The notes beneath the pieces are model-generated. The model searched no databases. It was not told the DNA's origin and was given only the letters and a program-made list of their open reading frames with translations. Shown piece by piece: positions 14,774-64,000 of a DNA stretch of 64,000 bases (within the stretch, counting starts at the first letter, position 1; each line of letters opens with the position of its first letter). The stretch is from the NCBI GenBank assembly GCA_963555755.3, contig OY820905.2, positions 256,001 through 320,000 of the forward strand. Direction: 5' to 3'. Made by a program: the position numbers and the translations under genes. This stretch comes from Nitrospirales bacterium (GTDB lineage Bacteria; Nitrospirota; Nitrospiria; Nitrospirales; UBA8639).

Positions 14774-14880
14774 ACTTTCGACATCGGACCAACAGCCTTT
14801 TGTGTCGCTGTAAGAGGTGGTCCTAAGATTTCGGACAGGGATTTAGGCTACAATTGATGACCAAAGGAGGGTCATGGATT

Positions 14881-15171
14881 ATGAGTCGAACCCGAAAGAA
14901 TCATCCGGCCAATTTTAAAGCCAAGGTGGCGTTGTCCGCGCTCCGCGAGGAGGCACCGATCTCGGAACTCGCGGTAAAATATGGCGTGCATGCCACCGTC
15001 ATTCATCGCTGGAAACGTGAAGCCCTGGCCTCCCTGGAGGCGGGGTTTTCCGGCAAGTGTGAAAAGAGCCACACCGATCAAGCGGCGCACATTCATGAGC
15101 TGCACGCTAAAATAGGCCAACTGAGTGTGGAGCGGGATTTTTTAGTCGCTGCCTCCAACCGATTGGGGTGA
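14881..15171 (+). CDS. IS3 OrfA
   Basis: FKAKVAL...ELAVKYGVH...LHAKIGQL HTH; TTTTTTA slippery run near end. Confidence 0.9.
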   Translation: MSRTRKNHPANFKAKVALSALREEAPISELAVKYGVHATVIHRWKREALASLEAGFSGKCEKSHTDQAAHIHELHAKIGQLSVERDFLVAASNRLG

Positions 15172-16037
15172 GGAGGCGTCAAGACATGGTAGAGCCCTCC
15201 AATAAACAACTGAGCATCCAGACCCAATGTCAGTTGCTCTCCATCAGCCGCTCTGGCTGGTATTATGAATCAAAAGGGGAGTCTCCGCTGCACCTCACGC
15301 TCATGCGTCTGATTGATGAGCAATTTTTAGCCACGCCCTATTACGGCAGCCGTCAGATGGCCCGCTGGGTCCGGCGTCAGGGGTATGAGGTGGGGCGGCA
15401 CCGAGTGCGGCGGTTGATGGCGTTGATGGGCGTGCACGCGATTTATCAGGAACCGCGCACGCGTGCACCTCACCCGCAGCATCGGATCTATCCCTACCTC
15501 TTGCGGAATCTGGCTATCACCCGGGCCCATCAGGTCTGGTGCACAGATATCACCTACATCCCGATCAAGCGAGGATTTTTATAGCTGGTGGCGATTATGG
15601 ATTGGCAGAGTCGCAAAGTGCTCTCCTGGCGCCTGTCCAATACGATGGATACGCATTTCTGCGTGGAAGCGCTGGAGGAGGCGCTGGCCTTGTATGGCGT
15701 GCCGGACATATTCAATACGGATCAAGGCTCGCAATTTACGTCGTGTGAATTTACCTCGGTCCTGCAAGACCACGGGATCAAGATTTCCATGGATGGGAAG
15801 GGCCGGTGGATGGATAACGTGTGTATTGAACGGCTGTGGCGGAGCCTGAAATATGAATGTGTATACCTGCATGCCTTGGAGACCGGCTCTCAGGCTCGGT
15901 ACCAGATTGGTGCCTGGCTCAGCCATTACAACCACACACGGCCTCATTCAACCTTTAATGGACAAACCCCTGATGAAGTCTATAATCTCTCTCATCTTCA
16001 GAGGCCCGCCCCTGAAGAGAAGAAACAAGCGGCATAA
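15168..16037 (+). pseudogene. IS3 OrfB (DDE) with in-frame TAG at 15582-15584
   Basis: WCTDITYIP, FNTDQGSQF, DNVCIERLWRSLKYE; copy 2 has TAT (Tyr) at this codon. Confidence 0.9.
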
Positions 16038-16276
16038 CCTCAACCATCAAGTTGTAGCTTCACGTTGCCGCAAACCTGTCCAACACAGTGGGACCACCTC
16101 TAGGGATGATTCACGTATGCCGATATTAAGAAAATATGGACAAGGCCAAACGTGATTCAAAGAGGATCAGGAAAAACAGGGATGGACTTTGAATCTCATG
16201 CTTGGAGTCAAAATAGGACGCAAGTTTTTTTTGAGTAAACCGACAAGACACGTAGAGTAAACGATAGACCGAGAAC

Positions 16277-57664: not shown

Positions 57665-58993
57665 GGTTCCTCGTCATATCATGTGGAATTGAAGAGGAAA
57701 CGTATAGGCGCTGCGATCATGTAAATCATGGTCATAAAGGTCTGGGGGTTTCGATAGCCTCGTGCTCTTGAGCGAGCAGCCTGAAATAACGAATTCAGCC
57801 CTTCCATACGGGCATTGGAGTAGGTTGACGTCCAACGCTGGAGAATCCGTTGGGTGTGGGTTTGCAGTGTGTTCAACGCTTTTCTGATGGCTTCGAGTTC
57901 TGGGGCATCGCTCAGCATGGAGTGGGCGTGATGAAGAAAGTGTGTCAGTCGCCACCGAGCGGCACGGAGTGTTTGAGCCTGCCTGACCCATCGCACCTTT
58001 TCCTTGATCCGCCAGGCAATGGTGGTCAGAAAGTCTCCGTCCTCCAATTCCTGCAAAGCCAGCTTCTGTTTTTCCGTTAACCCCTTGCCTTTCAAGACCG
58101 CCCACCGCGTGGCTTGGGGGAGTTTGGTCTGTTGCTGCTCACGCTTGCGCACCGCCTCGACGGCTTGAGTAAACAGTTGCACCACATGGAACCAATCCAC
58201 TGTGACAGTGGCTTGCTCAAACTCTTCTTCGACCGCGGCCCAAAAAGCCGGCGACATATCACACACGACTTCCAGCACGTTCTCCGCACGGCCGCCATGC
58301 GCCTTCAGCCAGGCCTTGAAATCCTTCACGGTCTGCTTGCCCTTGCCGGGCGTGGCAAACACAACAGGCTGCGTCCGGCGCTTCATGTCCACAAACACGG
58401 TGACATAGTTGTGGCCTCGCTTGGAGGCGGTTTCATCAAACCCAAAGGCTTCCAATTCCCGCAAGTCCAGTGCTTTCAGCGCTTGGCCAACGTAGTGCTG
58501 AATGATGCGCCACAATCGCTTGTCCCTCTCGCCCACCAGCCGGGCCGTGGCCGCAACAGGCATCTCCCGAACCAGACTCATCACCACCTGTTCAAACAGT
58601 AAGGTGAACCGACTCCCTTCACGCGCCCACGGAACTTCAATCCACTTGACCCCGTGCTCGGGGCACCGGATGCGGGGCCCCTTGGCGGTCAGCAGACAGT
58701 GGTGCTGAAAGAAGTTCAGGTGTCGCCAACGAAGCTCTTTGAAGTCATGCGCTTTACACTCCTTGCCGCACTCAGGACAGGGAAACAGAGAACCCCGATC
58801 CGAGGCCAGCTCAAGGTGTAACTCATGCGGGTTCTTCTCGGTATCCAGATGTTGAGAAACCACTTCCCACGGCGCACTCATCCCCAGCCCTAAAGAAAAT
58901 ATCTCACGTTCGTCCATCATGATCGCCCCCTTTTATTGGGGACGAATTAAGCCACATCAAACCAATTAATTCCACACCTCATGACGAAGAACC
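57665..58993 (-). mobile_element. ISL3-family element
   Basis: IR GGTTCCTCGTCAT / ATGACGAAGAACC; 8-bp duplication ATTTATAT. Confidence 0.95.
57679..58920 (-). CDS. ISL3 transposase
   Basis: CPECG, WRHLNFFQH, VPWA, FDET, VCDMS, DWFHVV, SNARMEGLNS, ARGYR. Confidence 0.95.
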   Translation of the reverse strand: MMDEREIFSLGLGMSAPWEVVSQHLDTEKNPHELHLELASDRGSLFPCPECGKECKAHDFKELRWRHLNFFQHHCLLTAKGPRIRCPEHGVKWIEVPWAREGSRFTLLFEQVVMSLVREMPVAATARLVGERDKRLWRIIQHYVGQALKALDLRELEAFGFDETASKRGHNYVTVFVDMKRRTQPVVFATPGKGKQTVKDFKAWLKAHGGRAENVLEVVCDMSPAFWAAVEEEFEQATVTVDWFHVVQLFTQAVEAVRKREQQQTKLPQATRWAVLKGKGLTEKQKLALQELEDGDFLTTIAWRIKEKVRWVRQAQTLRAARWRLTHFLHHAHSMLSDAPELEAIRKALNTLQTHTQRILQRWTSTYSNARMEGLNSLFQAARSRARGYRNPQTFMTMIYMIAAPIRFLFNST

Positions 58994-59236
58994 ATTTATA
59001 TTACGTATCAGTAGTGTCCCAACGTTTGCTGTCTGGATCGATCTAAGTTATTGATGAAGCAGGCATTAATCATGATTTTTCCTGGTCTCGATTTGAACTG
59101 CACGAACTGGTTTTGCCACCCTGCGAGGAATCTTTTTGCAGGAGGGTTGAATGAACCAAGGCCAGTTGGTATTTGCACAATTGACGCAACATCTGCCGCT
59201 CACGACATTCCGACGCTGTGTGGCACGGTACCAAGG

Positions 59237-60623
59237 GAGCTATTGTCAAATCTAGTGTCTGAAGCGTTACTCACGCGGCGACCGGGTCCGTGGTTGTCTG
59301 TTCGATTCCATCGATAAATTGAATGTCCGCAACGACTTTGGGCCACTCTCGGAATCCTCGCAAGCGCCTCCATGTTTTCTCTGCGCATTGACCTAACTTG
59401 AACATCCTGTGCAATATGCCATCTCGCGTGAGACATCCCTTTGTGCGGATCGTCCGATGCCGAATCGTTCCAAAGGTCGATTCGATGGGATTGGTGGTCC
59501 GGAGACTCGGCCAATGGGCAGCCGGAAACGTATAGAACATCAGGAGCTCCTCTCGATCTTTCTGCAAACAGGCTGTGGCCTTGGGATATTTGAGCGCATA
59601 GGTGTTGAGGAATACATCAACGGCTTGCTCCGCCAACCCTTTGGTCTCAGACCGCCAGATGTCTTGTACGGCCTGCTTGGCTTTGGATTGCACACTTTGG
59701 GGCAGCGCATTTAAGACATTCTGTGTCTTGTGGCACCAACACCGTTGATGCCGCGTCACCGGGAAGATTTCTTCCAGGGCCGCCCAGAAGCCGAGGGCGC
59801 CATCCCCAACAGCCAAGGCGGGCGCGTTCAGCCCGCGGGCTTTCAGATGCCACAGGACTTCCCGCCAACTTTGGGTGGACTCACGAATCCCGTCTTCCAT
59901 CGCTAAGAGATGTTTCTCCCCGGAGGCATTCATGCCGATCACGACCAATGCACCTAAGCGCTGCTCTTCAGCTCGTACGCCACTCTAGATCCCATCGACC
60001 CAGATATAGACCCACTGGTCGGCATCGAGTCGACGTTGTCGCCAGAGGGTATACTCCTTCCGCCAGATCTGCTTGAGCCGAGCCACCGTACTGGCGGACA
60101 GCCCCTTGGCCTCTGGGCCCACGAGGACTTCCAGAGCCGGTTGCCTCTCTCCCGTCGAGATGCCTTTTACGTACAGCCATGGGATCGCCGCTTCCAAGCT
60201 AGCCGACTTGCGCACATACGGGGGGACCAGCGCCGAGTGAAACGTGACCGGTTTGCCCTGGCGACTCCGTACTTTTGGGACTTGTACGGTCACCGGCCCA
60301 ATGCCCGTCTGAATGTCGCGCGTCGGATGATGGCCGCTGAGGACAACCCTCGCATGCCCCTGTTCCGTTGACTGGTCTGCATAGGTCGCCAAGAGCTCGG
60401 CCACCTCTGCTTTCAGGGCTTGGGCAAGAAGCTTCTGCGCCCCTGTTCGAATCAACTCCGTCAGCGAATCGGTCCTTCCTCGATCTTCTTCCTCTGATTT
60501 GGTACATTCCTGCATCGTGGCGTCTCTCCTTTGTGGTTGTGGTGGATGTCTCGCAACACCCATTTCAACCCGAGACGCCGCGTGTTTTCAACTGATCCTA
60601 GACACTACTTTCAAGTATAACTC
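59237..60623 (-). mobile_element. IS256-family element
   Basis: Imperfect IRs ending TAGTGTCT; 8-bp duplication TACCAAGG. Confidence 0.92.
59271..60517 (-). pseudogene. IS256 transposase with in-frame TAG at 59985-59987
   Basis: YIWVDGI*SGVRAE, VGDGALGFW, HQRCW.HK, RTTNPIES in a single frame. Confidence 0.88.
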
Positions 60624-60881
60624 TACCAAGGCGAGCACAAGGTGAAAGCGTTTTCGTGTCTGGACCAATTTTTTTGTATGGCCTTTGCACAGCTGACCTT
60701 TCGCGAGAGCCTACGCGACATCGAAGCCTGTCTGCGTGCCCAGCGCTCGAAGTTGTACCACCTAGGCATTCGCGCCGTCGTGTCGCGCAATACCTTGGCC
60801 AATGCCAACGCTGTGCGAGACTGGCGCATCTATGCCGACTTTGCGCAAAGTCTGATGGGGATCGCTCGACAGTTGTACATA

Positions 60882-62997
60882 GAGGTGGTCCTAGGAATTC
60901 GGACAGGGTTTTAGGCTACAATTGATGACCAAAGGAGGGTCATGGATTATGAGTCGAACCCGAAAGAATCATCCGGCCAATTTTAAGGCCAAGGTTGCGT
61001 TGTCCGCGCTCCGAGAGGATGCGCCGCTATCAGAGCTGGCTGTAAAATATGGCGTGCATGCACCGTCATTCATCGCTGGAAACGTGAAGCCCTGGCCTCA
61101 ATGGCAGCCGGGTTTTCAGGAACGCTTGCGAAGAATCACACCGATCAGGAGGCCCACATCCATGAGCTGCACGCCAAAATTGGCCAACTGAGTGTGGAAC
61201 GGGATTTTTTAGTCGGTGCCTCCAACCGGTTGGGGTCAGGAGGCGTCAAGAAATGGTAGAACCATCCAATAAGCAGCTGAGCCTCAAGACGCAATGTCAG
61301 TTGCTCTCCATCAGCCGCTCGGGCTGGTATTATGATCCCCAAGGGGAATCCCCGCTGAATCTCAAGCTCATGCGGCTAATCGATGAGCAATTTTTAACCA
61401 CGCCCTATTATGGCAGCCGTCAGATGGCACGCTGGTTACGGCGCCAGGGGTATGGCGTGGGGCGTCACCGGGTGCGGCGCTTGATGGCGTTGATGGGCGT
61501 GCACGCGATTTATCAGGAACCGCGCACGAGTGCGCCTCACCCGCAGCATCGGATCTATCCCTACCTCTTGCGGAATCTGGCTATCACCCGGGCCAATCAG
61601 CTCTGGTGCACAGATATCACCTACAGTGCGCCCAGCCTTCGGAGGTGTCATGGAGGACACTGCCGGAGCTTGAGCATGTTTGGAATGTAGAAGGACTGCC
61701 TATGGAAGGATGAGTCCGATACCCGCTTTTCGCTACGGAAAAGCGAGAGCCGAAACGGCGGTGACCTGCTATGCACTGGCAGGGTGACGGAGCCCGTGGG
61801 AAACGGGGCGTGAGGCGAAGTCGTTACGCCAAGATGCGTCTCTAGGCTGAGTGCGGGAAGGTTGAGGGACACGAACCGGTTCATGCGCGTCTGTGGGTTG
61901 AAATGTCACCACCTCCTACACGGCTTAATAGGGGGTTCACGGACAGATATCGGGTACAGGTATGAGCTGATATCGGGTGGCGGTGCGAAATGTAAGCGTG
62001 CCGCCACTGAGCAGCGTGGAGTGCGTAGCTAGCACGCGGCGTCTGTGACGACTTGCGGCAAGCAAGGAGAAAGATTGCGACCGGCAACCTCCCCCGCATG
62101 GTGGAGTCCAACATGTGAACTGGGGAAGGCGATGAAGGGGATGCCAAGGGAGTGCGATCCCGATGCCCCCATCGCTGGCGGAGCTCCCGTAGTAGTCGGA
62201 GACAGGGAAACCCTGTTACAGGGCGAAGGGGAGCAGCTCAAGGAGCTTGCGGGGCAGATTAACTGCCGGGAGAGAGGTGAAGACCTTTGAGAATCAGTGA
62301 AATGCAACGCAAGCTGGCGACGTGGTCGGCCGAGAGGTCGCCATGGCCATGACTCATGCTTGAGTGGAGAGCCGTATGCGCTGAGAGGCGCACGTACGGT
62401 TCGGGGAGGAGAAGCGGGGAAATAGCATATGACTACGCCCTGCTTCTTACTCTACTCCCGATCAAGCGAGGATTTTTATATCTGGTGGCGATTATGGATT
62501 GGCAGAGTCGCAAAGTGCTCTCCTGGCGCCTGTCCAATACGATGGATACGCATTTCTGCGTGGAAGCGCTGGAGGAGGCGCTGGCCTTGTATGGCGTGCC
62601 GGAAATATTCAACACGGATCAAGGCTCGCAATTTACGTCGTGTGAATTCACCTCGGTGCTGAAAGAACACGGGATCAACATTTCCATGGATGGAAAAGGT
62701 CGGTGGATGGATAACGTGTATATTGAACGGCTTTGGCGGAGCCTGAAATATGAATGTGTGTATCTGCATGCCTTTGAGAACGGCTCTCAGGCTCGTCACC
62801 AGATTGGCGCATGGCTCAGCCATTACAACCAAACACGGCCTCACTCGACTTTCGATGGACAAACCCCCGATGAGGTCTATAATCTCTCTCATCTTCAGAG
62901 GCCCGACCCTGGAGAGAAGAAGCAAGCGGCATAACCTCAACCATCAAGTTGTAGCTTAACGTTGCCGCAAACCTGTCCAACAAAGTGGGACCACCTC
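60882..62997 (+). mobile_element. IS3-family element, copy 2 (orfA frameshifted, orfB intron-interrupted)
   Basis: Same IRs and sequence as 14814-16100; 1-bp deletion near 61061; 830-bp insertion. Confidence 0.93.
61626..62455 (+). ncRNA. ORF-less group II intron
   Basis: 5' GTGCG, 3' AC; 34-nt domain V GAGCCGTATGCG-CTGAGAGG-CGCACGTACGGTTC (62369-62402); domain VI; exact insertion relative to IS3 copy 1. Confidence 0.95.
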
Positions 62998-63881
62998 GGT
63001 TCATCATTTACAACAAGCGTCAACCAGCCGAGATGAGTGAAGCCGAGATCGGCCAGTTCCTTTCAAGCCTGGTGTGTGAAGGGCTCGTCAGTGCCTCGAC
63101 TCAGAACCAAGCTTTGAACGCCCTGTTGTTTCTGTACCGGGAAGTTCTCGGTAAGAATATCAAGTACGTGAACGGGGTTGTCCGTGCCAAAAAGCCAAGA
63201 AGGTTGCCCATAGTTCTGACAACAGAGGAAGTCAAAAGAGTGCTTCGTGGCTTAAGCGGCACGCCATGGTTGATGGACCTGCTCATCTATGGAGGGGGAT
63301 TGCGTTTGATGGAGTGCTGCCGTCTGCGAGTCAAAGATCTTGACTTTGCGCAGAATCAGGTTGTCGTGCGGAGTGGCAAGGGGAATAAGGATCGCTACAC
63401 CACACTTTCAACTGCCATCAAGGAACCTCTCCTTCGACACCTCCAAGGGGTCAAGGGGCAACATCAGACTGATCTCAGGAAAGGTCTGGGGAGTGTCGCC
63501 TTACCCCATGCCTTTGAGCGGAAATATCCCAATGCCGGGAAGGAGTGGGGGTGGCAATGGGTGTTCCCGGCCACAAGCCACTACACCGACAGAATCACTG
63601 GCGTCAAGCGCAGGCATCATCTGCATGAGTCCGTTTTGCAACGAACCTTCAAGGAAGCGAGACTCAAAGCCGGGATCGCCAAATCGGCAAGTTGTCATAC
63701 GCTTCGCCACGCCTTTGCGACCCACCTCTTGGGGGACGGGTATGATATTCGGACGGTCCAAGAGTTGCTGGGTCACAAAGATGTGAGCACAACGATGATC
63801 TACACCCATGTGTTGAACCGAGGCGGGAAGGGAGTCCACAGTCCGACCGATCGACTCGGATTTGGCCTGGAGAACCTTTGA
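62998..63881 (+). pseudogene. intI: Integron integrase, 5'-truncated by IS3
   Basis: GLRLMEC, GKGNKDR, IntI patch WQWVFPA...RRHHLHES, HTLRH, LLGHKDVSTTMIYTHV; begins at RFII.NKRQP with the normal N-terminus missing. Confidence 0.92.
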
Positions 63882-64000
63882 GGGAAACCGGAATAGGCTG
63901 ACAATCCCTGCAGTGTTTGTCGGGTTCCCAAGAGTGGTAAATTTCTTGCTAAGTGTTGGAAAAGCTTATAGGATTTCCGAAATTCCAAAACGTACTGAGT
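63878..64000 (+). other. Integron platform / attI-like region 2 (continues past window)
   Basis: Homologous to 53259-53381. Confidence 0.7.

Follow-up and report, generated by a model that had tools for sequence, protein, structure and literature searches.

Can a group II intron that has lost its open reading frame (ORF) still act in the transposase gene in which it sits, and with the help of which protein? This question is raised by an 830-nt insertion in the genome of a Nitrospirales bacterium (GenBank assembly GCA_963555755.3, contig OY820905.2, positions 256,001 to 320,000). The window, i.e., the whole stretch of DNA analysed, is 64,000 nt in length, and the coordinates below are those of the window. 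As described here, the insertion, designated copy A, is probably an ORF-less, E.c.I4-like intron located at the usual site of its family in an IS3-type insertion sequence (IS), and stranded without a matching reverse transcriptase (RT)/maturase. Because the genome holds no such protein, copy A is likely immobile and at best weakly spliced.

Copy A occupies positions 61626-62455 of the forward strand, on which all features of the intron and its host described here lie. It begins with GUGCG (61626-61630) and ends with AC (62454-62455). These ends, and an 830-bp insertion before TCCCG, had been proposed in an earlier reading of this DNA from the letters alone (the sequence-only reading), and both the sequence and an uninterrupted paralog of the host IS bear them out. 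In the Rfam scan that was proposed there as a check, the Intron_gpII model (RF00029) matched 62367-62455 with 66.6 bits and an E-value of 6.1e-12, over its gathering score of 40. Two Rfam matches were obtained at E ≤ 1 in positions 58000-64000 of the window, and the other one was an overlapping plastid domain-V family under its cut-off. The insertion point is ACCTACA|TCCCG, and the paralog, which has no intron, is identical to the exons of copy A from -24 to +25. Since this paralog reads through ACCTACA|TCCCG, both intron boundaries are fixed to the base. Exact contigs from four DNA-like public runs (X1-X4) cross both junctions, and therefore the insertion is not an assembly artefact. The group II intron noted in the IS3 transposase is thus confirmed as a real observation.

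A complete ribozyme with domains I to VI is present in copy A. Domains I to III were delimited by the consensus fold from RNAalifold on 14 family members, in an alignment that included copy A. Domain I spans 61631-62124 and is closed by a helix of 61631-61635 with 62120-62124, and it is followed by domain II (62125-62179) and domain III (62183-62234). From the alignment to full-length parents and the fold, positions 62236-62366 were assigned to the remnant of domain IV. Domains V and VI, described as canonical in the sequence-only reading, hold up in both the Rfam match and the fold. Domain V (62369-62402) is a 34-nt hairpin with the AGC triad, a 2-nt bulge and a GAGA loop of the GNRA kind, and domain VI (62405-62453) carries the bulged branch-point A at 62449, 7 nt before the 3' end.

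The domain IV remnant tells how the ORF was lost. It holds the likely RT start, ATG 62302 (MQRKLATWS), and the RT end EVAMAMTHA* (62334-62363), in different reading frames. Five full-length loci (L083-L087) were found in relatives from the same taxonomic family. They are 2187-3093 nt in length, and flank one gap of about 1450 nt when aligned to copy A. A typical parent, in other Nitrospirales genomes, is about 2280 nt and encodes an RT of 507 aa (P0001), for which Pfam gives RVT_1 and GIIM and no endonuclease family. This RT begins ...RISEMQRKLATWS, contains the MQRKLATW start and ends EVAMAMTHA*. Copy A keeps exactly both ends of the parental RT, and so the anatomy read earlier for domain IV, an RT start joined to an RT end, was right; in the alignment, a deletion of about 1450 nt has brought the two parental ends together, which supports derivation of this ORF-less intron from an RT-bearing parent. 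Two details of that reading were changed. The start had been placed at TTG 62287 (peptide RISEMQRKLATWSAE), an upstream alternative, but ATG 62302 is the likelier one because the annotated RT of an E. coli relative starts with MQRKLATW. A GAG microhomology had also been proposed to join the remnants, and was rejected: the parents read ...TGGTCGGAC... and ...ACCGCGAGG... at the two sides with no GAG in common, and the junction lies at 62329|62330. Within domain IV, UGGCGAC and GUCGCCA could form a hairpin with a 15-nt loop. No Pfam family was obtained for the four longest ORFs of copy A (77-91 aa). Among the full-length loci, L085 (G113:C15:2844680-2848772) measures 3093 nt against about 2283, with an extra insert of about 810 nt that interrupts the start of its RT ORF, and its genome carries the same unit of IS and intron twice, 13 kb apart. 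In another full-length copy, L087 (G072:C190), the first base of the 3' exon, T at +1, is missing (…CTCTAC|CCCGATC); therefore, exact splicing would leave its orfB out of frame.

The fold of the ribozyme is well kept. The consensus contains 182 pairs in domains I to III, 67 of them with compensatory changes on both sides, and copy A forms 180. For comparison, 176 pairs are formed by copy B, a second ORF-less copy in the same genome, and 176-178 by the RT-bearing L083, L084, L086 and L087. Domain I of copy A thus folds, and inability to fold, which had been named earlier as a sign against the intron, was not found. On the terminal branch of copy A, 20 substitutions were counted, 18 in unpaired and 2 in paired columns, and none of them breaks a pair. 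Random placement gave a mean of 10.6 broken pairs, and 0 of 5000 trials was as low as the observed 2. On its own branch, copy B shows 4 pair breaks among 24 changes. These results suggest that the ribozyme of copy A was probably under selection along most of its lineage. Because the test covers the whole terminal branch, it speaks for past constraint and not for present activity.

The exon-binding sites (EBS) were compared with the intron-binding sites (IBS) of the exons. The EBS1 stem-loop (61978-62006) has a 10-bp covarying helix and a 9-nt loop (61988-61996), in which EBS1 UGUAAG (61991-61996) pairs at 5 of 6 positions with CCUACA, the last 6 nt of the 5' exon (IBS1, 61620-61625). The site, the stem-loop and the pairing agree with what had been read from the letters. 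At least 5 of 6 pairs with the own exon are formed in 12 of the 14 family copies; EBS1 of L083 (UAUAGC) pairs 6/6 with GCUAUA, L118 and L120 also reach 6/6, and changes on both sides of EBS1/IBS1 are seen in L083 and L122. The mean pairing is 5.0 with the own exon and 4.74 across copies, and these values are nearly equal because all targets share one motif. EBS2 is less certain. The EBS2-bearing stem-loop (61946-61974) consists of the helix GAUAUCGG (61946-61953) / CUGAUAUC (61967-61974) and the loop 61954-61966. In L083 the same helix reads GAGAGCAG/CUGCUCUC, so that the 8-bp helix covaries. The EBS2 proposed earlier, UGAUAUC (61968-61974), does pair 7/7 with GAUAUCA (-13 to -7), but as an EBS2 it appears doubtful, since it is the 3' strand of this covarying helix and would be sequestered there. 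A candidate in the loop, GGUAU (61959-61963), pairs 5/5 with exon positions -12 to -8, and the corresponding loop of L083, AGAUGU, as read from the alignment, pairs 6/6 with ACAUCU. The 5' strand of the helix, ACAGATATC (61943-61951), repeats 9 nt of the 5' exon exactly (-16 to -8, 61610-61618). Copy B shares this exon copy, and the L083 group has unrelated helix sequence there. The 9-nt copy may be an internal mimic of IBS2, or a coincidence of the GATATC palindrome.

The landing site of copy A is a habit of its family. Matches to the intron were obtained in 11 of 115 genomes of its taxonomic family, with the source genome (G000) included, and in 22 of 401 genomes sampled across the phylum, where more distant copies are about 74% identical. 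Both the full-length parents and these 74%-identical cousins occupy the same codon in many different IS3-type transposases. All 14 aligned copies have a 5' exon ending in D-x-x-Y or a near variant (TDITY, SDICY, MDIRY, ADITY, SDMTY, LDTTY etc.). A search of a species-genome collection with the parental RT gave 445 confirmed relatives among 471 candidate stretches. Among the best 80, which were fetched as loci, identity ranges over 67-100%, and the sources include Nitrospirales, Alpha-, Beta- and Gammaproteobacteria, Acidobacteriota and a Paenibacillus. A precise 5' boundary with at least 30 nt of exon could be drawn in 28 of these 80; an Asp codon at -13 to -11 was found in all 28, and 25 fit D-x-x-Y|. 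Of 5426 complete E. coli genomes, 2326 carry a relative that covers 95% of the intron at 68% identity. In the one E. coli copy that was examined, the insertion follows GDVTY| in a gene annotated as an IS3 family transposase; the RT of this intron starts with MQRKLATW and shares 67% identity with that of the parents. Solved RTs of other classes match the parental RT far more weakly (best E-value 5.9e-54). Published passages describe E.c.I4 as inserting at specific positions of IS3-like transposases (IS629, IS911, ISEc16 and ISEc31; PMC3522654), and place E.c.I4 and S.f.I1 in class A, the RTs of which are without an endonuclease domain (PMC3552965). We infer that the common IS3-borne intron of E. 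coli is E.c.I4, of class A, an identification made by published descriptions only. The family of copy A fits a class-A-like (E.c.I4-like) assignment, and landing in this codon fits a known habit of that family, so that the sequence-only reading was right to connect copy A with the class A introns known from IS3 elements of enterobacteria. One Pseudomonadales chromosome from a metagenome-assembled genome (MAG; L128-L134) carries six intron copies whose RT is 81-83% identical to the Nitrospirales RT, closer to it than many Nitrospirota copies are, which suggests a recent transfer between phyla; three of the six copies are at a site that does not look like IS3 and reads PTDKTY|.

The source genome holds no cognate RT that could be detected by DNA search, by tblastn or by a genome search with the parental RT. 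The parental RT does find 34 RT genes there, of which the top match shows 36% identity along 362 aa, or 45% within the RT core (residues 38-240). At the DNA level, outside copies A and B, only two 56-nt domain-V matches were obtained. The supply of a maturase in trans, as once proposed for copy A, is thus left without a cognate candidate, and the full-length, RT-bearing copy that was to be sought in this genome was not found. The genome, 4.6 Mb in size, is unusually rich in introns of several families, with 35 domain-V matches (19 over the Rfam cut-off), 31 GIIM and 35 RVT_1 matches; one of the RT families, of 438 aa, is present in over 10 near-identical copies. The empty site of the paralog, 46 kb from copy A and with the identical -24 to +25 sequence, is unoccupied.

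The host is itself defective. The IS3-family element extends over about 60883-62994 (about 1282 bp without the intron; the ends are approximate). It was delimited by its similarity to the paralog from about 60883 on and by HTH_21, rve and rve_3, with a terminal inverted repeat read from the sequence as GAGGTGGTCC.../...GGACCACCTC. Its orfA (60949-61259) is broken into two ORF pieces by a 1-nt deletion near 61051 (ATG-CACC against ATGCCACC in the paralog). No Pfam family was found in either piece, and the orfA of the paralog gives HTH_Tnp_1. Exon 1 of orfB (61253-61625) contains HTH_21 and ends with W-C-T-D-I-T-Y plus the first base of an Ile codon; exon 2 (62456-62934) contains rve from profile position 20 on and rve_3, and is open to the stop codon. 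The intron therefore splits orfB at TDITY|IP, after the first base of the Ile codon following D-I-T-Y, inside the rve catalytic core. The paralog (14813-16100, 90-94% identical, with its empty site at 15558|15559) reads TDITYIPIKRG, as had been predicted for the product of splicing. Its own orfB has a TAG stop 8 codons past the insertion site. A further proposal, that the intron could gate transposase expression, is moot, because the host orfA is frameshifted and there is no intact transposase to restore.

The public runs were also inspected for splicing. This read evidence consists of assembled contigs only, which drop rare forms. An exact contig of RNA run X15 (61614-61851) crosses the 5' splice site unspliced, and no exon-exon joint was found in the sparse contigs of RNA runs X15, X21 and X22. 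Likewise, X1-X4 at 98% likeness gave no 61625→62456 joint. Because assembled contigs drop rare forms, the missing joint says little. A 61625→62456 joint in run X5 (depth 130) was rejected as splicing: it carries C at 61595, the base of the empty paralog's DNA, where copy A has A.

From these results, a history of copy A can be proposed. Copy A or its RT-bearing ancestor would have arrived by retrohoming, in which reverse splicing was guided by EBS1/IBS1 and EBS2/IBS2 to the DNA coding for D-x-T-Y, and the RT may have come from its own ORF, in cis, prior to the deletion, or from a cognate copy that acted in trans and was lost later. Today, copy A would be a passenger in a defective IS, with no regulatory consequence because the host is itself defective. 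Several points weigh against a stranded and nearly silent intron. The ribozyme is without sign of decay, and self-splicing is possible, as is splicing helped by one of the heterologous intron RTs, about 30 in number, that the genome encodes. The missing spliced joint is weak evidence, and the unspliced X15 contig could be carry-over of DNA. The constraint test cannot say anything on selection after the insertion or after the ORF loss, and its consensus was derived with copy A included. The empty paralogous site might be younger in the genome than the loss of the RT. The E.c.I4 name and the class A label come from published passages and our inference, by description only.

How copy A came to be ORF-less can be considered through its relatives. 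The search for other deleted copies, proposed in the sequence-only reading, was productive. Copy B (G000:C1:491207-492008; L002 1501-2302) is 802 nt, ORF-less and 89% identical to copy A. It interrupts a different, 5'-truncated IS3-family orfB at TDITH|IL, and a 326-aa ORF ends just upstream. Its deletion is nested in that of copy A, with breakpoints that differ by about 15 nt and about 11 nt. At least three breakpoints of ORF loss are present in the family: that of copy A, that shared by copy B and L124 of genome G066, and that of L122 of G207. L123 of G370 retains about 690 nt of the ORF. L124, which belongs to another genus and is 5'-truncated at about intron position 350, has breakpoints identical to those of copy B, and the two are sisters (support 86/95) in IS hosts without blastn similarity. 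Because the breakpoints are shared in such hosts by copies placed as sisters, this form spread after its deletion.

Was the ORF lost in place, or was copy A without it on arrival, having been moved in trans by a cognate RT that later disappeared? We regard the latter origin as a serious possibility, somewhat short of an even chance. The spread of the copy B/L124 form shows that at least one ORF-less form of the family moved after deletion, the nesting of the copy B deletion in that of copy A points in the same direction, and published passages report 17 ORF-less introns with one common breakpoint in another system (PMC2882425). However, the breakpoint of copy A was found nowhere else: its junction occurs once in the source genome, and a 22-nt pattern over it had no exact match in the metagenome collection, where a 28-nt degenerate pattern over the B/L124 junction had no match either. 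The clade of copies A and B is weak (82/77) and is rejected on adding L124 (p-AU 0.03), and L088, whose ORF start runs past the junction, is placed without resolution beside copy A. Since L088 stands there and the clade is weak, independent deletions in place fit as well. With different breakpoints and weak trees, a single ORF loss may, but need not, account for both copies.

A second alternative concerns the present, namely that copy A is still a working, non-autonomous intron that splices alone or with a heterologous RT/maturase and sets the level of the IS3 transposase. The intact fold (180 of 182 pairs), the avoidance of helices by its lineage-specific changes, the presence of the region in RNA library X15, and the 31 GIIM and 35 RVT_1 matches from other intron families are all in keeping with it. 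Published passages also propose that RmInt1 splicing limits the spread of its host IS (PMC4238363), and report self-splicing of C.te.I1 in a genome without any intron RT (PMC4424553). On the other hand, the frameshifted orfA leaves no full transposase to gate, no RT of this genome exceeds 45% identity to that of the parents, and the sole exon joint, that of X5, is marked as the paralog by its C at 61595, with none in X1-X4 at 98%. We therefore consider a working intron unlikely.

The opposite alternative, that copy A is an inert relic with a dead ribozyme whose clean fold reflects too little time since inactivation, appears more improbable still. The absence of a cognate RT, the pseudogene state of both the host IS and its paralog, the 4 broken pairs on the branch of copy B, itself in a 5'-truncated IS, and the unspliced contig in the RNA library would agree with it. 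Against it, GUGCG, the triad and bulge of domain V, the GNRA loop, the branch-point A and the AC end are all canonical, and copy A, which has diverged from its sister by about 8%, has no pair-breaking change among the 20 on its terminal branch. The sequence-only reading had named an unfoldable domain I, no spliced product and no related RT as the marks of a dead relic; the latter two lean to that side, and the first is contradicted by the fold. Finally, it seems very doubtful that ORF-less class A introns form a self-sufficient lineage, comparable to miniature inverted-repeat transposable elements (MITEs), that outlives its parents inside IS3 and splices without a cognate maturase, with the IBS2 copy ACAGAUAUC in the EBS2 helix of copy A as a built-in exon-binding switch, although three genomes (G000, G066 and G207) hold ORF-less copies and none has a cognate RT (a parental RT search gave 0 matches in G066 and one distant match, 34%, in G207), and two of these ribozymes still form 97-99% of their pairs.

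The surroundings of the host IS are a pile of broken mobile elements (59271-60914 and 62985-63881). On the minus strand there is a Mutator-family transposase in two ORF pieces. A DUF4372 fragment stops short at the left end of the host IS, and a tyrosine recombinase (Phage_integrase and SAM_4) is cut exactly at its right end and lacks about the first 27 profile positions.

No earlier description of class A introns without an ORF, or of any group II intron in Nitrospira, came up in a literature search made largely without subscription journals. The survey of bacterial ORF-less introns by Simon et al. in 2008 may list cases bearing on novelty. Several known introns can be set beside copy A, as far as the published passages describe them. 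TeI3 of Thermosynechococcus elongatus (PMC2882425) is alike in its domain IV deletion of about 1.5 kb, its N- and C-terminal RT remnants, its disrupted frame and its intact ribozyme. It differs in its 17 copies with one breakpoint, the cognate TeI4 RTs in the genome and the lack of a tie to IS3, whereas in the genome of copy A the breakpoints of the two copies differ and a cognate RT is missing; the copy B/L124 form resembles TeI3 in having spread after deletion. C.te.I1 of Clostridium tetani (PMC4424553) is likewise ORF-less, and its genome encodes no intron protein that matches it. However, that genome is described as having no intron RT gene at all, with robust self-splicing reported for C.te.I1, whereas the genome of copy A has about 30 unrelated intron RTs. 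RmInt1 of Sinorhizobium meliloti, located in ISRm2011-2 (PMC4238363), shares the home in a transposase gene and the idea that splicing efficiency limits IS spread, but it carries an RT, belongs to class D (PMC3552965) and sits in another IS family, where the host IS is functional and not broken as here. The class A introns E.c.I4 and S.f.I1 of Escherichia and Shigella share with the parents of copy A an RT without the endonuclease domain, and E.c.I4 also the site in IS3 transposases. Compared with the E.c.I4-like intron of E. coli, copy A has lost the RT ORF, is hosted by Nitrospirales and shows about 32% sequence divergence. Class A was said in 2013 to have just three near-identical members (PMC3522654 / PMC3552965), as against the 445 of 471 stretches with relatives found here.

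Copy A joins two known kinds, the class A-like intron of IS3 transposases and the ORF-less derivative. As a case it is tidy but fairly ordinary, and its present activity is unlikely to matter to an IS that is already defective. For the family, our results indicate that the class A (E.c.I4-like) introns have spread far beyond Enterobacteria and kept one landing site, the DNA for the first catalytic Asp motif of IS3-type transposases. According to published passages, ORF-less bacterial introns almost always share their genome with related introns that bear an RT, and C.te.I1 is "the sole known exception" (PMC4424553). The ORF-less cases of Nitrospirota lean against this rule of co-residence, and fit RT-less copies that survive the extinction of autonomous ones. 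To that short list copy A is a clean and well-anchored addition, with a parent, an empty site, a sister copy, independent ORF-less derivatives and no cognate RT. Should it prove able to splice with no cognate maturase, copy A would offer a compact natural ribozyme; otherwise, it would stand as a record of the way in which such a family is lost from a genome.

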